Part shown: positions 2,044 through 11,098 of the stretch, piece after piece
Numbering within the stretch: the stretch's first letter is position 1
Layout: the number at the start of each line of letters is the position of its first letter
Virus genome (UHGV): UHGV-0320970
Direction: 5' to 3' (one strand)
DNA: 11,098 bases
Source of the DNA: a virus
Translations under genes and position numbers: made by a program
The notes under the pieces: model-generated
What the model was told of the DNA's origin: nothing
Databases searched by the model: none
The model's input: only the letters and a program-made list of their open reading frames with translations

Positions 2044-2337
2044 ATGATGGCAAACCTACGCAAAGAAGCGCGTGGCAGAGAATGTCAGGTACGGATTTAC
2101 GGCGTATGCAATGGCAATCCTGAAACTACAGTTTTGGCGCATTACCGAATAGCTGGAATTTGCGGAACGGGAATGAAGCCAGATGACCTGTTGGCTGCAT
2201 GGGCCTGTAGTGACTGCCATAATGAAATCGATCGCCGTACTCGCATTCTCGACAACAACGACGCCAGACTTTACCACCTGGAAGGCGTGATCAGGACGCA
2301 GGCGATATTGCTGAAGGAGGGGAAGATTAAGTCATGA
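2044..2337 (+). CDS. ybcO: YbcO-like DUF1364 protein (Cys/His-rich putative nuclease), 97 aa
   Basis: ARGRECQVRIYGVCNGNPETTVLAH...CSDCHNEIDRR pattern matches the DLP12 YbcO family. Tandem ATGs at 2044 and 2047; the stop overlaps the rusA start. Confidence 0.8.
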   Translation: MMANLRKEARGRECQVRIYGVCNGNPETTVLAHYRIAGICGTGMKPDDLLAAWACSDCHNEIDRRTRILDNNDARLYHLEGVIRTQAILLKEGKIKS

Positions 2338-2696
2338 ATGAATATGAGTTTGTGCTTCCCTGGCCGCCGACGGTGAATACCTACTGGCGAAGACGGGGAA
2401 GCCAGTACTACATCAGCGATAAAGTCCAGAAATACCGAAAAGACGTACAGCAAATCATCCGGCAACTCAGATTAGACATTTTCACTAAATCACGACTTCG
2501 CATCACAATTATTGCTGAACCACCAGACTCCCGCCGTCGCGACCTCGATAACATCCTGAAAGGTTTACTCGACTCTCTTATCCACGCCGGATTTGCGGAA
2601 GACGACGAGCAATTCGATGACATTCGCGTAATTCGCGGCGTGAAAGTGCCTGGCGGTAGAGTGGGGATAAAAATCACCGAACTGGAGAACATTTGA
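2334..2696 (+). CDS. rusA: RusA Holliday-junction resolvase (120 aa)
   Basis: MNEYEFVLPWPPTVNTYW...RRRDLDNILKGLLDSL...DDEQFDDIRV closely parallels E. coli RusA, including the acidic catalytic region. Start overlaps the ybcO stop (ATGA). Confidence 0.92.
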   Translation: MNEYEFVLPWPPTVNTYWRRRGSQYYISDKVQKYRKDVQQIIRQLRLDIFTKSRLRITIIAEPPDSRRRDLDNILKGLLDSLIHAGFAEDDEQFDDIRVIRGVKVPGGRVGIKITELENI

Positions 2697-2890
2697 TGAA
2701 TGCTAAAATTCAAACGATACCTGAATTACTGATCTGCACCAGGGGAAATCAGACAGAAGTCGCCAGAATACTGAACTGCAATCGTGCTACAGTCAGAAAA
2801 TACATTGATGATAAAGATGCGAAAAAGCACGCCGTCGTCAATGGCGTCCTTATGGTTCATCGCGGATGGGGTAAAGATACTGATGCGTGA
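2696..2890 (+). CDS. ninH: NinH-like protein (64 aa)
   Basis: ...[52 protein letters not shown] resembles lambda NinH (HTH-like). The ATG at 2696 overlaps the rusA stop; the track start at 2693 is a TTG three nt upstream. Confidence 0.85.
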
Positions 2891-3263
2891 TATCCGGCAG
2901 GTTCTTGAGCGCTGGGGGGCATGGGCGGTAAATAACTATGAGGATGTTACATGGTCGCCCATTGCTGCCGGATTTAAGGGACTGATCCCCGAAAAAGTAA
3001 AATCACGTCCACAGTGCTGTGACGATGATGCGATGGTGATATGCGGGTGCATAGCCCGCCTTTACCGGAACAATCGCGATCTGCATGACTTGCTGGTTGA
3101 TTACTACGTGTTGGGGGAGACGTTCATGGCGCTGGCACGTAAGCATGGATGCTCTGATGGAACTATCGGTAAAAAATTACAGAAAGCGGAGGGCGTGGTT
3201 GAAGGGATGTTAATGTTACTTGGTGTCAGACTGGAAATGGACCGATATGCGCAACGCCTCTGA
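2883..3263 (+). CDS. Q: Late-gene antiterminator Q, short phage-82 / QuuD-like type (126 aa)
   Basis: The track ORF starts at 2784, but that portion overlaps ninH out of frame. The ATG at 2883 overlaps the ninH stop (ATGCGTGA) and gives [24 protein letters not shown]...[12 protein letters not shown]...[10 protein letters not shown], which matches short Q antiterminators. Last gene of the nin operon, as expected. Confidence 0.85.
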
Positions 3264-3302
3264 CAGGAGGCGTTTGCCGTTCACTATGTGAAGTGTGTCA
3301 AT

Positions 3303-3332
3303 TTGTGAGCGTTATGCTGTTTACTTTATAGT
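3303..3332 (+). promoter_or_regulatory. Candidate late promoter pR' / qut region (TTGTGA, 18 bp, TATAGT)
   Basis: Sits in the 131-bp gap directly downstream of Q, where lambdoid phages carry pR' and the Q-utilisation site. Hexamer match only; the exact promoter is not certain. Confidence 0.3.
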
Positions 3333-3394
3333 ACAGGGACGTAAGAGTTATCTACCTGTTAATAACATATATACAACAATGAACAGGGGGCAAA

Positions 3395-3988
3395 ATGGAC
3401 ATTGAAGATTTTCTGGAGGCGGAAGACAATGATCTGTCTCTGTGGAATGATGATATTTTAAGCATTGACTGGTTCGTTATCCTCAAAGAGCTTTTGAAAT
3501 ACCAGAACAGGTTAAAGTTAAACTATTCAGAATTACTTCTGCTGGCTAATTTTGTTTCATTTCACCAGGACGTAGATTCGCAAACATTACCATCAATATC
3601 TCTTTTTGCCACCAGAATGCGTGCATCTCGTGCCATTATAGAAGAAGGCTTTCAACGCCTGGAGGAGAAAGGGATGTTGCAGAAGATAAGTTATGCTCAA
3701 ATCGGTCATGATTATGATTTGCGGAACGTTTATGACATCAAGCCATTAATTCGTAAGTTAATTGAGGTGCTGAAAACCGAGTATGATAAAAAGCACACTT
3801 GCCCCCTCTGCGGCAAAATAGCTGTCTCTGATGAGGAAATTGAGAAAAAATTCGGATTCAGAATTTGCGGGAATAAGAAAAGGCCGCAAAGCTGGTGCCG
3901 TTCATGCAGAAGCACGAAACAACGCAGACTGAATTCATCGCTAATTGGCAAAAAAAAGCCCCGAAAATCTCCGCCCGAGGTGGTGTGA
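3395..3988 (+). CDS. Moron-like hypothetical protein, 197 aa: acidic N-terminus, winged-helix-like core, C-terminal zinc-ribbon-like motif and basic tail
   Basis: Strong SD AGGGGG 6 nt before the ATG. Visibly more AT-rich than the nin genes. Core ...RASRAIIEEGFQRLEEKGMLQKI... resembles a winged-helix recognition region. C-terminus has CPLCG ... CRSCR and a Lys/Arg-rich tail. I recognise no family. Confidence 0.7.
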   Translation: MDIEDFLEAEDNDLSLWNDDILSIDWFVILKELLKYQNRLKLNYSELLLLANFVSFHQDVDSQTLPSISLFATRMRASRAIIEEGFQRLEEKGMLQKISYAQIGHDYDLRNVYDIKPLIRKLIEVLKTEYDKKHTCPLCGKIAVSDEEIEKKFGFRICGNKKRPQSWCRSCRSTKQRRLNSSLIGKKKPRKSPPEVV

Positions 3989-4101
3989 AGCGTCGCGGAA
4001 CCCCGGATTCCACTCACGATTGAACGAGGTGCTAAAAAGTATTTTACGTACGTAAAAATCTGCATATCATGATAAGAGTGGTTACATTGCCACGCTGCTT
4101 A

Positions 4102-4126
4102 ACCCGCCGATGCGCGGGTTTTTTTG
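4102..4126 (+). terminator. Intrinsic terminator (ACCCGC-CGATGC-GCGGGT followed by a T-run)
   Basis: GC-rich 6-bp stem followed by T7, about 110 nt downstream of the moron gene stop. Candidate tR'-equivalent or moron terminator. Confidence 0.6.
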
Positions 4127-4305
4127 TACCCAGAATCCTGTGAGCTATACGGAAAGTACACAGAAAGGAAGGTACGACCGCAATTAATAACAAAATCTTA
4201 AAAATCTCATATGGCACTATTAGTTTTCTAAATATTGTATATTTTAAGTATTGCAGGATAACCCTGTAACGAAGTTTGCGTAACAGCATTTTGCTCTACG
4301 AGTTT

Positions 4306-4336
4306 GCCAGCCTCCCCTGGTGGCTGGCTTTTTTTG
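4306..4336 (+). terminator. Intrinsic terminator (GCCAGCC-TCCCCTGGT-GGCTGGC followed by a T-run)
   Basis: Perfect 7-bp GC-rich stem, 9-nt loop and T7 tail. Confidence 0.65.
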
Positions 4337-4421
4337 TATCCGTTCAACGGGAATGTTACATACCTCACAATTAAGTCAGTTGAATGTTGTCTGCCCGGAT
4401 GAGAATTTGTTAGAAAAAACT

Positions 4422-4450
4422 GCATGGTGAATCCCCCTGAGCGGAGGGGC
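4422..4450. repeat. Outer inverted repeat P1 (29 bp), left copy
   Basis: GCATGGTGAATCCCCCTGAGCGGAGGGGC; its reverse complement recurs at 4817-4845 with one mismatch. Confidence 0.85.
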
Positions 4451-4520
4451 GACTGGTGACGGTATAATCTCTGATTATCAAAACGAGAATGACGCGGGTT
4501 TAGTGGCACCGGGCTGAACT

Positions 4521-4575
4521 CACCGGGAGGCACCCGGCACCATGCAATGGCACATAGCGCCACTCTCCAGCCCCT
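4521..4575. repeat. Repeat unit 'a' (55 bp), left arm of a perfect inverted repeat
   Basis: CACCGGGAGGCACCCGGCACCATGCAATGGCACATAGCGCCACTCTCCAGCCCCT; exact reverse complement at 4708-4762 (55/55). Confidence 0.95.
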
Positions 4576-4707
4576 CTCCGGAGGGGCTTTCTTATGGACA
4601 AAAAAGCCCGCGCTGGGAGACGCGGGCGGCAAGGAATAAACAATAAAACGTGAAGTAATATTTCAGCTGGCGAATAATACCCCATAGTAATCACTCTGCG
4701 CAACTGC
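4576..4707. repeat. Spacer S (132 bp) enclosed by the 'a' inverted repeat; contains convergent terminator-like hairpins
   Basis: Plus-strand hairpin GCCCCTC-TCCG-GAGGGGC followed by TTTCTT at the a/S boundary. Minus-strand hairpin GCCCGCG...CGCGGGC followed by a T-run (plus coords ~4600-4627). A near-identical copy of S lies at 10917-11049. Confidence 0.85.
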
Positions 4708-4762
4708 AGGGGCTGGAGAGTGGCGCTATGTGCCATTGCATGGTGCCGGGTGCCTCCCGGTG
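4708..4762. repeat. Repeat unit a' (inverted copy of 'a')
   Basis: Exact reverse complement of 4521-4575. Confidence 0.95.
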
Positions 4763-4816
4763 AATTCAGTACCAGCACCTGAATCCGCGATTATCCCATA
4801 TACCTACTCGCTGATT

Positions 4817-4845
4817 GCCCCTCCGCACAGGGGGATTCACCATGC
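4817..4845. repeat. Outer inverted repeat P1', right copy
   Basis: Reverse complement of 4422-4450 with a single mismatch. Confidence 0.85.
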
Positions 4846-4891
4846 CAGTTTCTTTTAACAAACTCCCCGCAAACCAGACAACAGTCAACCG

Positions 4892-4946
4892 CCGGCACCA
4901 TGCAATGGCACATAGCGCCACTCTCCAGCCCCTCTCCGGAGGGGCT
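4892..4946. repeat. Third copy of the 'a' unit, direct orientation
   Basis: 55/55 identical to 4534-4588 (CCGGCACCATGCAATGGCACATAGCGCCACTCTCCAGCCCCTCTCCGGAGGGGCT); flanks differ. Confidence 0.9.
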
Positions 4947-4981
4947 GTTTATATTGATTTTGTCAGATGTGAGTAAACTCC

Positions 4982-5317
4982 TTATGGACTTTGTTGTTTT
5001 AGCCCATAAGGACATATTTGCAGAGTGCAACGGTTATTAAAGCATTCATTCAATACGTTATCTGTATTTGTAGGGCATTCCTGGCTGTTTTTGATTAAAT
5101 TCCAGAATGTTTTATTGAATGGTACTACGTTGTAAATGGTTACAGGTAGCACTTTGTTATTGAGCATGATGCCTGTGTGAGTCAGTGTAAATATACTTTC
5201 AGGAGGTAAGAAAGCATCCGATTGATACCAGATTATTAATTTTATTTTACTCCATATGACTGAAAAAGATATTCCGCATGATGGCTGGATAACTGTATCA
5301 ATCACAATCCACTTCAT
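4982..5317 (-). CDS. Hypothetical protein (111 aa) in an AT-rich island, orientation opposite to neighbours
   Basis: ORF with plausible SD AAGGAA 6 nt upstream of the ATG on the minus strand. Very AT-rich and similar to nothing I recognise; could be a spurious ORF. Confidence 0.3.
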
Positions 5318-5577
5318 TTAGTTTCCTTGTTTATGCCTTGCTGGTGATGTTCTGAAAAGTATAAATGATATTTTTGATTGTAAACCATAGAGCAGAATTA
5401 TTTTTCTGATGTTGTTTATTGTTTATTTAAATGCAGGGTGGTTTATATCTCGTCTTGTAGTTTATCCATGCATATCTGCTTGATGATGAGGTTTTTATTT
5501 AAGGTATGGTTTTGTGTTTTTTCTGTATTACATGTCAGGTATTTTAAAGAATCATTTTTCAGATGGTGGAAAGAACC

Positions 5578-7521
5578 ATGGCATTTAAACACTATGATGT
5601 TGTCAGGGCGGCGTCGCCGTCAGATCTTGCGGAAAAGCTGACACATAAACTGAAAGAGGGCTGGCAGCCGTTTGGCAGTCCTGTGGCTATCACGCCTTAT
5701 ACACTGATGCAGGCCATTGCCGCAGAGGGTGATGTGACCACGCCTGTGGTTGTGCCCGACACAGGGGCTGGTGGCTCTCCGGGAGTGGCTACCACTGAAC
5801 CGGAGTATTACTACGTTATTCCCCTGGCCGGGCAGTCGAACGGTATGGCCTATGGTGAGGGGCTTCCTCTGCCGGAGACCTATGATCGCCCTGACTCCCG
5901 TATTAAGCAGCTGGCCCGTCGCAGCACTGTGACGCCGGGTGGTGATACCTGTGCATACAATGACGTTATTCCGGCAGACCACTGTCTGCATGATGTTCAG
6001 GACATGAGCGCACTTAACCATCCTCATGCAGACCTGAGTAAGGGCCAGTACGGGACTGTCGGTCAGGGGCTGCATATTGCCAAAAAACTGCTGCCTTATA
6101 TCCCGCAGAATGCCGGGATTCTTCTGGTGCCCTGTTGCCGTGGCGGGTCTGGTTTAACCGTGGGTAATGACGGCACGTTCAGCGAAACGTCTGGTGCATC
6201 GGCAAATTCAGCCCGCTGGGGAGTGGGTAAACCGCTGTATCAGGATTTTCTCTTCCGTACAAAAGCGGCGCTGTCGAAGAACCCGAAAAACAGGCTTCTG
6301 GCCGTGGTATGGATGCAGGGGGAAAATGATCTTGCGGACGGCAGTCAGCAGCACAGCGGCCTGTTTACCACTATGGTGCAGCAGTTCAGGGCTGATATGG
6401 CTGCATATTCTGCACAGTGTGTTGGCGGAAGTGCTGGCTCGGTGCCGTGGATTTGTGGTGACACCACGTATTACTGGAAGAATCTTAACGCCGATAAATA
6501 TGAGGCGGTATATGGCGGTTACAAGGGCAGGGAAGCACAGAATATTTTCTTTGTACCGTTCCTGACGGATGAGAATGGACAGAGCACGCCAACGAATGCT
6601 CCGGCGGAAGACCCGGATATTGTGGCTGTCGGGTATTACGGTGCAGCATCCCGAACCCAGGGCAGTTTTGTTTCGACACAGCGTGACAGCCATTTCAGCT
6701 CATGGGCACGCAGGGGCGTCATTTCAGACCGTCTGGCCTCAGCTATTATGCTCCATGCAGGGCGCACGGCTGAATTGATGCGCGGGCAGACCGTGACACC
6801 ACCGGATGAGAAGCCGTCACCTGATACACCATCAAAACCGTCCACGCCACCCGCAGACACCACGACGATGAGTACGCTATTTGCTTACCGGGCATCTGAG
6901 TCTGAAGGACGGTTGACACCACAGGGTTGGGCTGCTGGAGGTGGCAAGGCTCAAATCGTGGATGATGCCGGAGCCAGCGGGGGTAAGGCAATGAAACTGA
7001 CCAAGGAAACAGGAAGAGCCCCCTGGTACCTTGAGCATGATGCTGGTAATGGTGCGGACCTGCTGGGTAAAGGTGGTCTTGTCAGTTGTCGTTTTAAACT
7101 CGATGGCGCGCTTACGGCTAATCAGTACGCACTGGCGCTGTACTGGCCGGTTTCTTCATTGCCTCAGGGTGTCACACTGGAAGGTAATGCCGGTAACAAT
7201 CTGCTGGCGTCGTTTTACGTACAGAGCGATGCCACAGACCTCAACGTGATGTACCACAAGGGTAACGCTGACCAGAACACGAAGCTGGGGTCATTCGGCG
7301 CATTTGACAACGAATGGCATACGCTGGGTTTCCGTTTTGCCGGTAATAACAGCATTCAGGTGACGCCGGTGATTGATGGTCAGGATGGTGCACCGTTCAT
7401 GCTGTCGCAGTCTCCGGTAGGTTCTTTTGCGGCAGACAAATTACGTGTAACGGATATCACAAAAGCGGCGACGTATACGGTGCTGATTGAAAGTATAACA
7501 GTGGAAGTGAATAACCCGTAA
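5578..7521 (+). CDS. nanS-p: Prophage NanS-p-type sialate O-acetylesterase (N-terminal DUF1737-like domain, SGNH/SASA esterase core, C-terminal putative carbohydrate-binding domain), 647 aa
   Basis: The paralogue starts MAFKHYDVV, so the ATG at 5578 is preferred over the track start at 5563. Core contains YYYVIPLAGQSNGMAYGEG (GQSN nucleophile motif) and CGDTTYYW. Located in the post-Q slot where lambdoid and Stx prophages carry nanS-p. Confidence 0.88.
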   Translation: MAFKHYDVVRAASPSDLAEKLTHKLKEGWQPFGSPVAITPYTLMQAIAAEGDVTTPVVVPDTGAGGSPGVATTEPEYYYVIPLAGQSNGMAYGEGLPLPETYDRPDSRIKQLARRSTVTPGGDTCAYNDVIPADHCLHDVQDMSALNHPHADLSKGQYGTVGQGLHIAKKLLPYIPQNAGILLVPCCRGGSGLTVGNDGTFSETSGASANSARWGVGKPLYQDFLFRTKAALSKNPKNRLLAVVWMQGENDLADGSQQHSGLFTTMVQQFRADMAAYSAQCVGGSAGSVPWICGDTTYYWKNLNADKYEAVYGGYKGREAQNIFFVPFLTDENGQSTPTNAPAEDPDIVAVGYYGAASRTQGSFVSTQRDSHFSSWARRGVISDRLASAIMLHAGRTAELMRGQTVTPPDEKPSPDTPSKPSTPPADTTTMSTLFAYRASESEGRLTPQGWAAGGGKAQIVDDAGASGGKAMKLTKETGRAPWYLEHDAGNGADLLGKGGLVSCRFKLDGALTANQYALALYWPVSSLPQGVTLEGNAGNNLLASFYVQSDATDLNVMYHKGNADQNTKLGSFGAFDNEWHTLGFRFAGNNSIQVTPVIDGQDGAPFMLSQSPVGSFAADKLRVTDITKAATYTVLIESITVEVNNP

Positions 7522-7669
7522 GCAGGAAAAAAAGACCGCCGTGGCAGGGAAAACAAGGAGCCAGAACCGGCGGCAGAAGTCGCTACATCCTTAGCAAAAA
7601 TATGCTGAGCAAAAAATGCAGGAGTTTTTTACTGGCAGGCATTGACCATGTCAATAATGGAGATGAATA

Positions 7670-7852
7670 ATGACATTTTTACAGCTGATTATGTTGTATT
7701 TCTGTACAGCAGTTTGTGTGCTGTATCTTCTTTCTGGTGGGTACAGAGTCGTGAGAGATTTCTGGCGCAGACAGATTGACAAAAGGGCCGCTGAGAAAAT
7801 CAGTGCCAGTCAGTCAGCCGGAACAAAACCCGAAGAGCCTCTCATTCCGTAG
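7670..7852 (+). CDS. Small single-pass membrane protein (60 aa), paralogue of 8424..8606
   Basis: MTFLQLIMLYFCTAVCVLYLLSGGY is a hydrophobic helix, followed by a charged tail. SD GGAG upstream. A diverged copy is conserved on the opposite arm. Confidence 0.6.
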   Translation: MTFLQLIMLYFCTAVCVLYLLSGGYRVVRDFWRRQIDKRAAEKISASQSAGTKPEEPLIP

Positions 7853-7889
7853 CAACTTTCTTAACAACACCTTTCAACGAGAAAATACC

Positions 7890-8414
7890 ATGTCAGAAAT
7901 AAAATCGCTGGTCACTGCTGAAGCAGTGAAGGAAGTCCTGCGCTCTGAAGAAGTCAGAAGCGCACTGAAACAGCAACTTCGGCAGAACCTTGAGGCGCGT
8001 CTTGATGCAGAAGTGGATGCCATTCTGGATGAACTGCTGGGCGCACCGACTGTTCCGGAGCCGGAAGGCATTGCGTACCCCGTCTCCCGCAATCCGGAAG
8101 CTCACAACAATATAAAGACCACCGGCACACACCGATGGTCCCTTGCGCATGCTTACATCATCATGTCGCTGTCAGGTGTAGGTTCACCGCCATCTGAAGC
8201 ACTCCCGTCACCCGCGATACCTTCCGGCTCAGGAACCGCTGCTACGCCCAGCAGCTCATCCAGAATGGCATCCACTTCTGCATCAAGACGCGACTCAAGA
8301 TTCTGGCGAAGTTTCTGTTTCAGTGCGCTCCGGACCTCTTCAGAGCGCAGGACTTCCTTCACTGCCTCTGCAGTGACCAGGGATGTGATTTCTGACATGG
8401 GATTTTCTCGCTGA
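7890..8414 (+). CDS. 81-aa-family acidic helical protein, plus-arm copy; homology ends near 8078 and the ORF then reads through the palindrome centre antisense to the other copy (possibly truncated or fused)
   Basis: MSEIKSLVTAEAVKEVLRSEEVRSALKQQLRQNLEARLDAEVDAILDELLG...PEPEGIA matches the minus-arm copy for 63 aa, then diverges with no nearby stop. Confidence 0.45.
   Translation: MSEIKSLVTAEAVKEVLRSEEVRSALKQQLRQNLEARLDAEVDAILDELLGAPTVPEPEGIAYPVSRNPEAHNNIKTTGTHRWSLAHAYIIMSLSGVGSPPSEALPSPAIPSGSGTAATPSSSSRMASTSASRRDSRFWRSFCFSALRTSSERRTSFTASAVTRDVISDMGFSR
8153..8398 (-). CDS. 81-aa acidic helical protein, minus-arm copy (apparently intact)
   Basis: MSEITSLVTAEAVKEVLRSEEVRSALKQKLRQNLESRLDAEVDAILDELLG...PEPEGIAGDGSASDGGEPTPDSDMMM with its own stop at 8153-8155. 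Confidence 0.6.
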   Translation of the reverse strand: MSEITSLVTAEAVKEVLRSEEVRSALKQKLRQNLESRLDAEVDAILDELLGVAAVPEPEGIAGDGSASDGGEPTPDSDMMM

Positions 8415-8423
8415 AAGGGGTTG

Positions 8424-8606
8424 TTAAGGAGTAACGGGTTCTTCGGGTTTGCTTCCGGCTGACTGACTGGCGCTGATTTTCTCAGCGGCCCTTTTATCAA
8501 TCTGCCTGCACCAGAAATCGCGCACAGCCCTGTACCCACCCGAAAGAAGATACAGCACACAGACCGCCGTACAGAAGTACAGCATCACCTGATGAATAAA
8601 TGTCAT
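8424..8606 (-). CDS. Small single-pass membrane protein (60 aa), paralogue of 7670..7852
   Basis: MTFIHQVMLYFCTAVCVLYLLSGGYRAVRDFWCRQIDKRAAEKISASQSAGSKPEEPVTP; diverged from the plus-arm copy at several positions, so not a recent exact duplicate. Confidence 0.6.
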   Translation of the reverse strand: MTFIHQVMLYFCTAVCVLYLLSGGYRAVRDFWCRQIDKRAAEKISASQSAGSKPEEPVTP

Positions 8607-8745
8607 AATTTCTTACCGTTATGGTTGACAATGAGAATTGTTTTCATTTAAAAAACCAATGTACGAAAGCATCTTTTCTTTACATTCTCCATTGGGATTA
8701 CCTCCGCCAGCTTCCATTCCTGCCGCTGGCGGCTTTTTTTAGCAA

Positions 8746-10656
8746 TTATGCGGCTGCTCCAGCTTTGTTTGCTTTAACTTCCACCGTATCAATAAGTACA
8801 GGGTAGGTTTCTGCACTACCTGTAATATCCGTAATGACAAACCTGTTGAGTCCATTAGCAGTATTGGCCCATTTCACCAGGTCAAACGCCTGTCCATCCA
8901 CACCATCGAGCACCGGAGTAACATTAATGCTGTTACTGCCCTTAAATTTAAATGCAAGCGTATGCCAGTCATGGTCGAATGCGCCAAACGTGCCAAGTTC
9001 TTTTTGTTGATTAACTGTATGATGGTATGCAACATTAATACTGGCTTTATCTGTCTGGACAAAGAAAGAACTCAGATGGCCTTCACCACCCTCACCCGGC
9101 CATTCCGCTATTCGCCAGTACAAACCAAAGGCATACTTGTTTCTGGTTGTCTCAAGATTGACGTTTTCGGGGATTTTAAACCGGACAGCAATTTCCCCGC
9201 CTTTTTCCAGTAAAAGTTTTGCCTTGTCTGCAGCAATATCACAGTACATTGACCAGGATTTCGCGCTGTTATTTTTCTCAATTCGCAGAGCTTTATTGCC
9301 GCTGTCATCAACCAGTGTGCGTCTGCCATACATACCGTCCCAGCCATAAGGTTTCAGCTGATTGTCTGTAGCTTTTTTGGCATCGTAAAAAATTACAGAC
9401 TCTGAGGTGGTAACCGGCCTGTCTGGAACAACCACCCCGGCAGTACCATTAACAAACGCAGAAGACTTACCCGCGCAGCTCAGAATCGCCGTTGCCAGAC
9501 GGTCGGAAATAATCCCACGGCGAGCCCATGAACTGAAATGGCTCGCCCTGTCCTGTGACGTCCAGGTGGCTGAGCTGTCACGCCATTTCGAACCGTAATA
9601 ACCGATACCCGGAATGTCCGGGTCTTCTTCCGGTTTGTTCGTCGGCACATTCACCCCGTTCTCATCGGTCATGAACGGTACGAAATGGATATTCTTTTCC
9701 GTTTTATTTTTATAGCTGCCGTACACCGTCTGGTACGTGGATTCGTTCTTCTGCTTCCAGAAATACGTCGTGTCCCCGCATATCCAGGGAACACCGCCAG
9801 CAGAGCCACCGACGCACTGGCCTGCCATATCCGCCAGGTCTGCACGGAATTTATCAACCAGCGCACCAAACTGTGCGGCATGATTTGCCGGCGTACCGCC
9901 AAAATCAAATTCCCCCTGCATCCACACCACGGCAAACAGCACATTTTTCGGGTTCTTCTCCAGTGCCGCTTTTGTTCGACCGATAAGGTCCTTATACAGC
10001 GGCTTGTCCACACCCCAGCGGGTTGAATTCTCCGAGGCACCACTCGCGTCACTGTATGTGCCATCAGCTCCGGTGGTGAACGCTGAACCACCACGACAGC
10101 ACGGAACCAGCAGAATGCCCGCATTCGCCGGTATAAACGGCAGCAGTTTTTTGGCGATATGCAGCCCCTGCCCCACGGTTCCGTACTGCCCCTTTGACAG
10201 GTCCGCTTTCGGATGGTTAAGACGGCTCATGTCCTGCACATCATGCAGACAATGGTCCGCCGGAATGATGTCGTTATATTTGCATGCTGCACCGCCCGGT
10301 GTCACCGTACTGCGACGCGCTAACTGTTTAATACGTGGATCAGGGCTGTCGAATGTATCCGGTAATGGCAGTCCCTCACCGTATGACATACCATTGGACT
10401 GACCAGCAAGCGCGATCACATAGTAATATTCTGGCGCAACAGAAGGCGCTGAGGTCGTCGGACGGTTGCCTGGCTCCTCTGGTGATGAGATGCTCCCCTC
10501 ACTCACAACTGGCTGGATGAACTCCGCACCATAACCAGCTGTCGAAATCAGCGCACTACCATAAGGCTGCCACCCTTCCTTCAGTTTTTGAGTTATTCGT
10601 TTCGCAAGGTCTGACGGCGACGCCGCCCTGACAACATCATAGTGTTTAAATGCCAT
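8746..10656 (-). CDS. nanS-p: Second, diverged NanS-p-type sialate O-acetylesterase (636 aa)
   Basis: MAFKHYDVVRAASPSDLA..., YYYVIALAGQSNGMSYGEG, CGDTTYFW. Strong SD GGGAGG 5 nt upstream on the minus strand. Same three-domain layout as 5578..7521 but with many substitutions, especially in the linker and C-terminal domain. Confidence 0.9.
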   Translation of the reverse strand: MAFKHYDVVRAASPSDLAKRITQKLKEGWQPYGSALISTAGYGAEFIQPVVSEGSISSPEEPGNRPTTSAPSVAPEYYYVIALAGQSNGMSYGEGLPLPDTFDSPDPRIKQLARRSTVTPGGAACKYNDIIPADHCLHDVQDMSRLNHPKADLSKGQYGTVGQGLHIAKKLLPFIPANAGILLVPCCRGGSAFTTGADGTYSDASGASENSTRWGVDKPLYKDLIGRTKAALEKNPKNVLFAVVWMQGEFDFGGTPANHAAQFGALVDKFRADLADMAGQCVGGSAGGVPWICGDTTYFWKQKNESTYQTVYGSYKNKTEKNIHFVPFMTDENGVNVPTNKPEEDPDIPGIGYYGSKWRDSSATWTSQDRASHFSSWARRGIISDRLATAILSCAGKSSAFVNGTAGVVVPDRPVTTSESVIFYDAKKATDNQLKPYGWDGMYGRRTLVDDSGNKALRIEKNNSAKSWSMYCDIAADKAKLLLEKGGEIAVRFKIPENVNLETTRNKYAFGLYWRIAEWPGEGGEGHLSSFFVQTDKASINVAYHHTVNQQKELGTFGAFDHDWHTLAFKFKGSNSINVTPVLDGVDGQAFDLVKWANTANGLNRFVITDITGSAETYPVLIDTVEVKANKAGAAA

Positions 10657-10720
10657 GAATCCTCCCGGCCGGGATAATATTGTGAGTAAAATAAGGAGCG
10701 GGCTGAAGTCCGGAAGTTAC

Positions 10721-10838
10721 AGGACAATGGCAGAAGGGAGACTACAGCCCGCAATTCGAAAAAGGTCGCGCAGTTGCGCAGAGTGATTACTATGGGGTAT
10801 TATTCGCCAGCTGAAATATTACTTCACGTTTTATTGTT
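10721..10838. repeat. Left arm of the terminal palindrome (118 bp)
   Basis: Reverse complement of 10981-11098, checked by eye over both ends. Its inner ~70 bp is the reverse complement of the right part of spacer S. Confidence 0.85.
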
Positions 10839-10916
10839 GATTCAGGTGCTGGTACTGAATTCACCGGGAGGCACCCGGCACCATGCAATGGCACATAGCG
10901 CCACTCTCCAGCCCCT
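10839..10916. repeat. 78-bp block identical to the reverse complement of 4708-4785 (flank R0 plus unit 'a')
   Basis: GATTCAGGTGCTGGTACTGAATT followed by the 55-bp 'a' unit; exact match to the reverse complement of the locus-1 a'+flank. Confidence 0.9.
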
Positions 10917-11049
10917 CTCCGGAGGGGCTTTCTTGTGGGCAAAAAAAGCCCGCGCTGGGAGACGCGGGCGGCAAGGAATAAACAATAAAACGTGAAGTAA
11001 TATTTCAGCTGGCGAATAATACCCCATAGTAATCACTCTGCGCAACTGC
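10917..11049. repeat. Second copy of spacer S, same plus-strand orientation as 4576-4707
   Basis: Near-identical to 4576-4707 apart from an extra A in the A-run and two substitutions (CTTATGGACA vs CTTGTGGGCA). Confidence 0.9.
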
Positions 11050-11098
11050 GCGACCTTTTTCGAATTGCGGGCTGTAGTCTCCCTTCTGCCATTGTCCT
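10981..11098. repeat. Right arm of the terminal palindrome, running to the window edge
   Basis: Reverse complement of 10721-10838; the palindrome may continue beyond the window. Confidence 0.85.

Follow-up and report, generated by a model that had tools for sequence, protein, structure and literature searches.

A probable STnc100-family small RNA gene in the late-regulatory region of a lambdoid prophage

Identification of an STnc100 copy

The plus-strand segment at 4451–4594 of UHGV virus genome UHGV-0320970, flagged in an initial annotation as a candidate small RNA, belongs to a copy of the previously described STnc100/EcOnc05, a small RNA (sRNA) that binds Hfq and is encoded by lambdoid prophages. 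In the window, as the whole analysed stretch of 11,098 nucleotides is called here, the sequence from about 4366 or 4422 to about 4596 (+) is, judged by comparison with known members, very probably the gene for an Hfq-associated sRNA of the STnc100 family. This family comprises Rfam RF02076, EcOnc05 and EcOnc27 (alias sRNA103) of EHEC and the EPEC relatives PasD1 and PasD2.

Positions 4394–4599(+) matched RF02076 (STnc100) over the full model (1–206) with 165.1 bits (E = 5e-38), above the gathering score of 47 bits. Further matches were found at 4698–4874(−) with 105.7 bits and at 10751–10940(+) with 60.7 bits, together with a sub-threshold fragment at 4782–4958. The RNA was proposed earlier as a candidate; the element is RF02076, and the same 3′ module, called ‘a’ in that proposal, is part of EcOnc05. 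Standard Infernal/Rfam annotation would label the locus STnc100, so nothing new hinges on it: we take it for a genuine sRNA gene belonging to a known family, whose promoter, length and boundaries had been set wrongly.

[quoted passage not shown] The model starts at 4394, 28 nt 5′ of the conserved scaffold, whereas the likely 5′ end of the transcript lies at 4366 (about 28 nt further upstream) or at 4422. The boundaries of model and transcript probably do not match, the 5′ end of STnc100-type copies being placed about 57 nt 5′ of the scaffold.

Anatomy and modularity of the gene

The following elements were distinguished in and around the main copy.

4354–4362 (+): distal element resembling a −10 (TGTTACATA); TTGTAT at 4333–4338 may be its −35
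4366–4597 (+): predicted long sRNA form, about 230 nt, counterpart of EcOnc05 and EcOnc27
4406–4416 (+): proximal A-rich motif TTTGTTAGAAA
4422–4545 (+): conserved scaffold
4422–4429 with 4538–4545 (+): P1, long-range closing helix
4434–4438 with 4445–4449 (+): P2
4450–4495 (+): variable cassette 1
4463–4468 (+): TATAAT hexamer, inside variable cassette 1
4496–4503 with 4514–4521 (+): P3
4523–4527 with 4533–4537 (+): P4
4514–4599 (+): ‘a’ unit (repeat family D1), made up of the P3 3′ arm, P4, the P1 3′ strand, the seed cassette and the terminator
4546–4568 (+): seed cassette AAUGGCACAUAGCGCCACUCUCC, predicted to be largely unpaired
4569–4596 (+): intrinsic terminator with an 8-bp stem, UCCG tetraloop and UUUCUU tail

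The modules follow one another in the order conserved block led by TCACAATTCAG, scaffold, variable cassette with P3, P4 with the P1 3′ strand, seed cassette and terminator. The scaffold opens with GCATGGTGAATCCCCC...GGGG, which provides the P1 5′ strand and P2, and CACCGGGAGGCACCCGGCACCATGC corresponds to P4 and the P1 3′ strand. At the 3′ end, the hairpin AGCCCCTCTCCGGAGGGGCT (4569–4588) is followed by TTCTTATGG, with an interrupted U-tail (UUUCUU); the GC-rich hairpin and TTTCTT noted earlier at the end of ‘a’ were confirmed as an intrinsic terminator. The notion of a small RNA with ‘a’ as its body held in so far as there is an sRNA gene and ‘a’ ends in its terminator, but ‘a’ accounts only for the 3′ third.

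For comparison, 126 copies of the family (92 distinct 300-mers, 46 distinct scaffolds) were collected from IMG/VR and reference loci. These copies were gathered with a fixed 5′ anchor and are mutually related, so that shuffle statistics overstate their independence. Variable cassette 1 is exchanged for unrelated sequence in 40 of the 46 distinct scaffolds, and the seed cassette at 4546–4568 is one among at least ten unrelated alternatives at that position. Because the PasD seed occupies the equivalent position, this cassette would be the target-pairing region of the RNA. The ‘a’ unit was the commonest 3′ module in the viral-contig sample (49 of 126 copies) and occurs with many kinds of scaffold and flank. 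Of the 5,426 complete E. coli genomes, about 2,750 had matches to a query of 121 nt, one half of it being the ‘a’ module.

A search of 596 Gb of contigs with the pattern GCATGGTGAATCCNCC returned random matches only, in unrelated phyla, the pattern being too short; loci L008–L127 were left out for this reason. A seed duplex scan across the 11-kb window yielded only the trivial perfect antisense copies of ‘a’; the background obtained with shuffled seeds (−27.7 ± 1.9 kcal/mol) was too high for target calls. Four tandem STnc100 copies (77–132 bits) lie 3′ of tRNA genes at 2265–3380 (−) of IMGVR_UViG_2861053794_000003 (L132) and among them are the P1 and P3 variants that diverge furthest. Several copies per intergenic region occur there too, in direct rather than inverted order.

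Secondary structure and covariation

The minimum free energy fold of 4422–4599 contains P1 to P4 and the terminator and leaves most of the seed region unpaired (z = −2.9); RNAalifold on 37 distinct scaffolds returned the same helices. Across these scaffolds 98% of the cells were paired, compared with 39–51% when the partners were slid. In P3, four pairs showed double (compensatory) changes in 25 cells, against at most five in the slid controls. The 5′ strand of P1 was fixed by the search pattern, and variants of this helix come from copies found via the P4 core. The variant GCATGATG/CATCATGC of Sakai Sp9 was paired at eight of eight positions, as were GCGTGGTG/CACCACGC and ATATGGCG/CGCCATAT, and G-U intermediates were also present among the copies. 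One L132 copy has a wholly different P3 sequence in which pairing is kept. Two basal pairs of the terminator stem covary among members, and the loop is UCCG or UUCG (UNCG tetraloop).

The comparative structure prediction recommended in the initial annotation thus revealed compensatory changes in P1, P3 and the terminator stem. Most copies have almost the same P1, and P2 and P4 show very little variation and are uninformative on covariation; support comes mostly from P3 and a few divergent copies. The structural support is genuine and rests on a limited number of independent events. The long form, starting at 4366, folds only modestly better than shuffled sequences (z = −1.6, against −2.9 for 4422–4599).

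Transcription start

The most likely transcription start lies some 100 bases 5′ of the TATAAT hexamer that had been put forward as the promoter. Starts near 4366 and/or 4422 are proposed because of conserved upstream motifs and the published sizes of homologous RNAs.

The distal −10-like element lies 4–5 nt ahead of a conserved block, TCACAATT(A/C)AG. Among 63 distinct upstream contexts, 48 share the motif T(T/G)TTAAAT-N4-TCACAATTCAG, whose CACAATT has its C at −57 ± 1 from GCATGG; beyond the motif, these contexts are unrelated, being a tRNA terminator, the 3′ end of stx2B or tR′. Such conservation suggests that the distal motif is a promoter, of which the window carries a weak version. If transcription begins at the CA of TCACAATT, EcOnc05 in Sakai Sp4 should be 218 nt long (about 222 nt on northern blots) and EcOnc27 in Sp5 about 230 nt (235/247 nt). 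For the window, a long form of about 230 nt starting at about 4366 is predicted in the same way. Alternatively, a conserved processing site may be located at about −57.

The proximal motif brings TTTGTTAAAA 7–8 nt ahead of GCATGG. Its positions −17, −16, −13 and −11 to −8 are 89–98% conserved among 44 distinct upstream sequences, and it is absent from the divergent L132 copies. It may be an extended −10 for a start at 4422, giving an RNA of about 175 nt, or an A-rich element within the long RNA. A start at 4422 fits because the 5′ ends of PasD1 and PasD2 map to the G of GCATGG. Both candidates in the window are weak matches to the consensus and were not called by the consensus promoter scan.

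Relatives in EHEC and EPEC

The closest systems are EcOnc05 (Sp4), EcOnc27/sRNA103 (Sp5, 3′ of stx2B) and EcOnc04, described by Tree et al. 2014 (PMC4104026), who reported convergent sRNA pairs at the ‘moron’ site 3′ of pR′ in EHEC. EcOnc27 is the plus-strand member in Sp5, with AsxR as its partner; it was detected on northern blots at 235/247 nt, and loss of Hfq makes the 247-nt form less stable (PMC4104026). Table S2 of that paper lists EcOnc05 at 1179806–1179914(+) as an Hfq-CRAC cluster with a northern signal of about 222 nt, and EcOnc08/21, of about 271 nt, for the S-type partner in Sp4.

The ‘a’ unit of the window (4514–4599) is identical at 85 of 86 positions to Sakai Sp4 1179849–1179934, a segment of EcOnc05 that overlaps its Hfq cluster. 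In Sp4 this 3′ module is followed by the same convergent S-type partner as in the window (EcOnc08/21/42), and both copies are positioned 5′ of an esterase gene. The main window copy (copy 1) differs from Sp4 in variable cassette 1 and in the 5′ arm of P3. In Sp5 of NC_002695.2, Rfam STnc100 covers 1268422–1268627 and AsxR 1268629–1268681. After correction by +135, the EcOnc27 Hfq cluster coincides with the 3′ 80 nt of STnc100, the homologue of ‘a’, so that EcOnc05 and EcOnc27 have Hfq crosslinks in the homologous 3′ region. EcOnc27 differs from the window copy in its seed cassette and terminator and in having AsxR instead of S as partner. Published work thus documents discrete transcripts and Hfq crosslinking at the 3′ region for homologues, one of which carries the same ‘a’; by analogy, both would be expected of the window copy. 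Its expression in this host, its exact 5′ end and its targets are likewise proposed from these relatives.

The coordinates of Tree et al. 2014 were found to be shifted by +135 relative to NC_002695.2 at Sp5 (1.268 Mb), with no such offset at Sp4 (1.18 Mb). When EcOnc27 was overlaid on STnc100 in a paper of 2025, no more than ‘partial overlap’ was reported, behind which this shift may lie. For strain EDL933, 11 transcribed STnc100 copies have been reported, one of them confirmed by northern blot; the published coordinates of this copy, STnc100_4, did not match CP008957.

PasD1 and PasD2 of EPEC E2348/69 (EcOnc13 in EHEC) are 172–173 nt long, with 5′ ends derived from RNA-seq coverage (Pearl Mizrahi 2021; Zhu, Shabalina and Storz 2026 preprint). 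Both begin with GCATGGTGAATCC, which in the window starts at 4422, and share with the window copy the P1/P2/P3 architecture, a seed between scaffold and terminator, and the position 3′ of Q and 5′ of esterase or lysis genes. Shared ancestry of PasD and STnc100 is described in the 2026 preprint of the Storz laboratory, and PasD forms RIL-seq chimeras with many mRNAs via the cassette at the same position. PasD differs in lacking P4 and in having its own seed (CCUUGUGAGU region), terminator and promoter (TTGACT-18-TAAAAA). BLAST aligned only the first ~40 nt (81%, with the second window copy), and the upstream type is different. On this comparison the window copies are regarded as having a scaffold related to PasD and not as PasD itself.

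No function or target of STnc100 members is established in the literature, where overexpression of EcOnc27/sRNA103 has been found to raise fimZ and espA transcript levels. In prophage PP6 of E. coli E2348/69 (L007, ~1150–1160) a copy bearing ‘a’ lacks the 5′ end (GCATGGTGAATCCCC) and stands beside an ISEc13 insertion. Because this 5′ end is missing, the ‘a’ variant is probably not expressed from its own promoter in E2348/69, the strain used for RIL-seq.

Genomic context

Its gene content and Pfam domains identify the window as late-regulatory sequence of a lambdoid prophage, with the following landmarks.

705–1370: ORF6N/P22 antirepressor (P22AR)-like gene
Also present: ninB (NinB), ybcO and rusA (RusA) genes
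2784–3263: Q antiterminator, 159 aa as ORF
3395–3988: DnaD_N-domain ORF of 197 aa, after Q
3989–5562: long non-coding stretch holding one minus-strand ORF
After this stretch: two convergent DUF1737/SASA/DUF6645 (nanS-p-type) esterase genes, 652 and 636 aa

The STnc100 gene is located in the ‘moron’ region of this lambdoid prophage, 3′ of Q and a StxS-like pR′-tR′ unit and 5′ of a nanS-p-type esterase gene, and converges, from the plus strand, on a second, S-type sRNA gene. E. coli O10:H32 NMBU-W12E19 has a prophage that is 99.9% identical over positions 3950–4707, and in it the order Q, hypothetical gene, STnc100 region and esterase reproduces the layout of the window; PGAP gives no annotation over the STnc100 region there. 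Terminator-like sites are enriched in 3950–5600 (9 against 1.8 ± 1.3 expected).

A promoter-like TTTACG-16-TATCAT is present at 4043–4070 (+), and the tR′ terminator at 4304–4336. Positions 4031–4337 (+) are 94.5% identical to the Q-end/pR′/tR′ segment of Stx2 phage Nil3 and thus represent a homologue of StxS, a 258-nt pR′-tR′ transcript with a 74-nt processed form (Sy et al. 2020). StxS is an Hfq sRNA neighbouring STnc100 in the same intergenic region, but the two RNAs are separate, StxS ending at tR′ (about 4336), 5′ of the STnc100 gene. A second terminator-like hairpin was seen at 4101–4120, only about 25–45 nt past the predicted pR′ start. The Q protein accompanying StxS has 144 aa, compared with 159 aa for the ORF in the window; because the window Q is not of this StxS type, pR′ may be an orphan or the specificity of Q may be mismatched.

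The convergent partner and the repeat copies

Besides the main copy, the window contains the following STnc100 and S-type elements.

4600–4703 (−): S-type sRNA, 3′ 104 nt (EcOnc08/21/42-like), with terminator 4627→4606 + TTTTTT and seed CCUUGCC at 4635→4629
4708–4893 (−): second STnc100 copy, fused to S (Rfam match 4698–4874(−), 105.7 bits)
4892–4958 (+): ‘a’ fragment, from the P4 3′ half through the terminator, with tail TGTTTATATTG
10697–10940 (+): chimera of the S-type 5′ 147 nt (10697–10843) and P3-P4-‘a’-terminator (10839–10940), 60.7 bits
4514–4605, 4708–4785 (inverted), 4892–4963 and 10855–10946: repeats of ‘a’

The S sequence at 4703→4600 is 95% identical over 104 nt to the EPEC RIL-seq candidate E2348C_1409.E2348C_1408.IGR, and that at 11098→10941 is 92% identical over 158 nt; the seed CCUUGCC and the terminator are included in this identity, and the targets of the EPEC candidate carry GGCAAGG. 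The left copy of S lacks the 5′ 77 nt. The S-type copies and parts, 10697–10843 included, also resemble EHEC EcOnc08/21/42 at 92–95% identity. On the opposite strand, a strong hairpin and T-run had been noted after the inverted ‘a’ and the reverse-complemented S; these correspond to the terminator at 4627→4606 with its TTTTTT.

A convergent partner was found after 52 of the 126 copies, of S type in 35 and of AsxR/AgvB type in 17, the remainder having none. The anti-sRNAs AsxR and AgvB (RF02703, RF02702) occupy the same slot after the STnc100 terminator, but the partner in the window is of the unrelated S type, and the window has no AsxR/AgvB match. Identification of S with AsxR/AgvB was rejected for want of an Rfam match, S being of the EcOnc08/21/42 type. 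The S-type RNA has no Rfam family, and its matches in the window (OmrA-B, Qrr and others) were at chance level only. A candidate S promoter, TTGCGC...TATTAT, was also rejected: the northern probe for EcOnc08/21/42 covers this sequence and detects an RNA of about 271 nt.

The scaffold of the second STnc100 copy (4893→4708) is 100% identical to phage Nil3. Its terminator is halved at 4708, from where the copy runs into the 3′ 104 nt of S, and the distal upstream motif and block are missing. At the right end of the window, the chimera converges on a complete S gene (11098→10941). Junctions at 4707/4708, 4891/4892 and 10843/10844 join STnc100 and S modules in inverted order, with a-S-a′ on the left and S′-a-S on the right. 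None of 5,426 complete E. coli genomes contains the left or the right junction, although each half is common in them, and all three are missing from the viral and reference loci that were fetched. Either a rare rearrangement or an assembly chimera accounts for them.

Expression as RNA had been offered to explain the perfect conservation of ‘a’ against drifting flanks. The identity within the window comes partly from recent duplication and rearrangement; reflecting a recent rearrangement or an assembly chimera, it is by itself no evidence of selection. That the inverted a-S-a′ (4514–4785) and S′-a-S (10721–11098) are real, expressed chimeras and not assembly errors appears doubtful. If they were, an STnc100 scaffold and seed would run into the S-type 3′ half (4845→4600, about 246 nt), and an S-type promoter and 5′ part would be fused to the STnc100 P3-P4-seed-terminator module (10697–10940). 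A module swap between two unrelated Hfq sRNA families would then have been caught in the act, which would fit the STnc100 scaffold as a fixed platform onto which recombination grafts differing seed-terminator cassettes.

Alternative explanations

An independent sRNA of about 120 nt, starting about 7 nt past TATAAT, with ‘a’ as its body and ending at 4594, is very improbable. The hexamer at 4463–4468 (+) is indeed present as a perfect −10, with the terminator at 4569–4588, and could act as a minor internal start; the related TATGAT occupies the site in four other scaffolds. However, TATAAT occurs three times in the window against 4.18 ± 2.25 expected, and is thus at chance frequency. It was observed at this site in only two of the 46 distinct scaffolds, within a cassette swapped for unrelated sequence in most of them. 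The promoter scan does not report it and, in agreement with the earlier remark that no convincing −35 exists, neither a −35 nor a TG extension was found. A transcript started here would lack the 5′ strand of P1, because the closing helix begins at 4422; this strand covaries with its partner. Nor does any homologue have a reported RNA of about 120 nt, the published sizes being 173, about 187, about 222 and 235/247 nt.

It is also improbable that ‘a’ and S act merely as DNA or in cis, as a bidirectional terminator or insulator and a patch of homology for recombination, with no role as RNA in trans. The back-to-back terminators at 4569–4627, the site between pR′ and the late genes, the three rearrangement junctions in or beside ‘a’ and S, and the joining of identical ‘a’ to many scaffolds and flanks would all suit such a role. 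Neither a terminator nor a homology patch, however, needs a structured scaffold of 120 nt with compensatory changes; the homologues are discrete, abundant, Hfq-bound RNAs, and PasD forms its mRNA chimeras via the cassette at this position. The two roles could coexist. A protein encoded on the opposite strand is scarcely credible. Minus-strand ORFs of 134 and 92 aa do exist (4228–4632 and 4500–4778), and a ‘hypothetical protein’ is annotated over ‘a’ in several RefSeq genomes and also antisense to PasD1. Yet neither ORF has a Pfam match, both cross two terminators, the promoter region and swapped cassettes, which leaves no conserved frame, and nothing is annotated by PGAP in the 99.9% identical prophage. 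Small sense ORFs were rejected together with these, having no Pfam matches and frames that cross terminators.

Proposed mode of action

As pR′ transcripts should stop at tR′ (4304–4336), the proposed STnc100-family sRNA would depend on its own promoter for its production in the lysogen. Hfq would bind the 3′ module, while the variable cassette would pair in trans with host or prophage mRNAs. Recombination would move the 3′ modules among scaffolds and prophages. The combination of a fixed scaffold with at least ten seed cassettes bears on how prophage sRNAs diversify. The ‘a’ cassette is a sensible first choice for target mapping in STnc100, because it is the commonest variant and no target of the family is known in the literature.

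Other features of the window

A minus-strand ORF of 111 aa at 4982–5317, which has no Pfam match, corresponds to a gene of phage vB_EcoS-733R4 annotated as an IraM-like anti-adapter. No tRNA genes were found in the window. A large imperfect palindrome extends over ~5563–10656, with its centre near 8144. Its arms hold the esterase genes (72–83% identical) and inverted repeats of the DUF826 region (7654–8075 versus 8213–8622, 82–89%). It looks like two different prophage late regions joined head to head, with no holin or lysis genes between them.

Rfam matches to c4-a1b1 (453–505), isrK (466–540) and C4 antisense RNA (567–651), all on the plus strand, lie directly 5′ of the antirepressor-like gene at 705–1370. 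The segment 453–651 is a P1/P7-type C4 immunity module within the lambdoid prophage.
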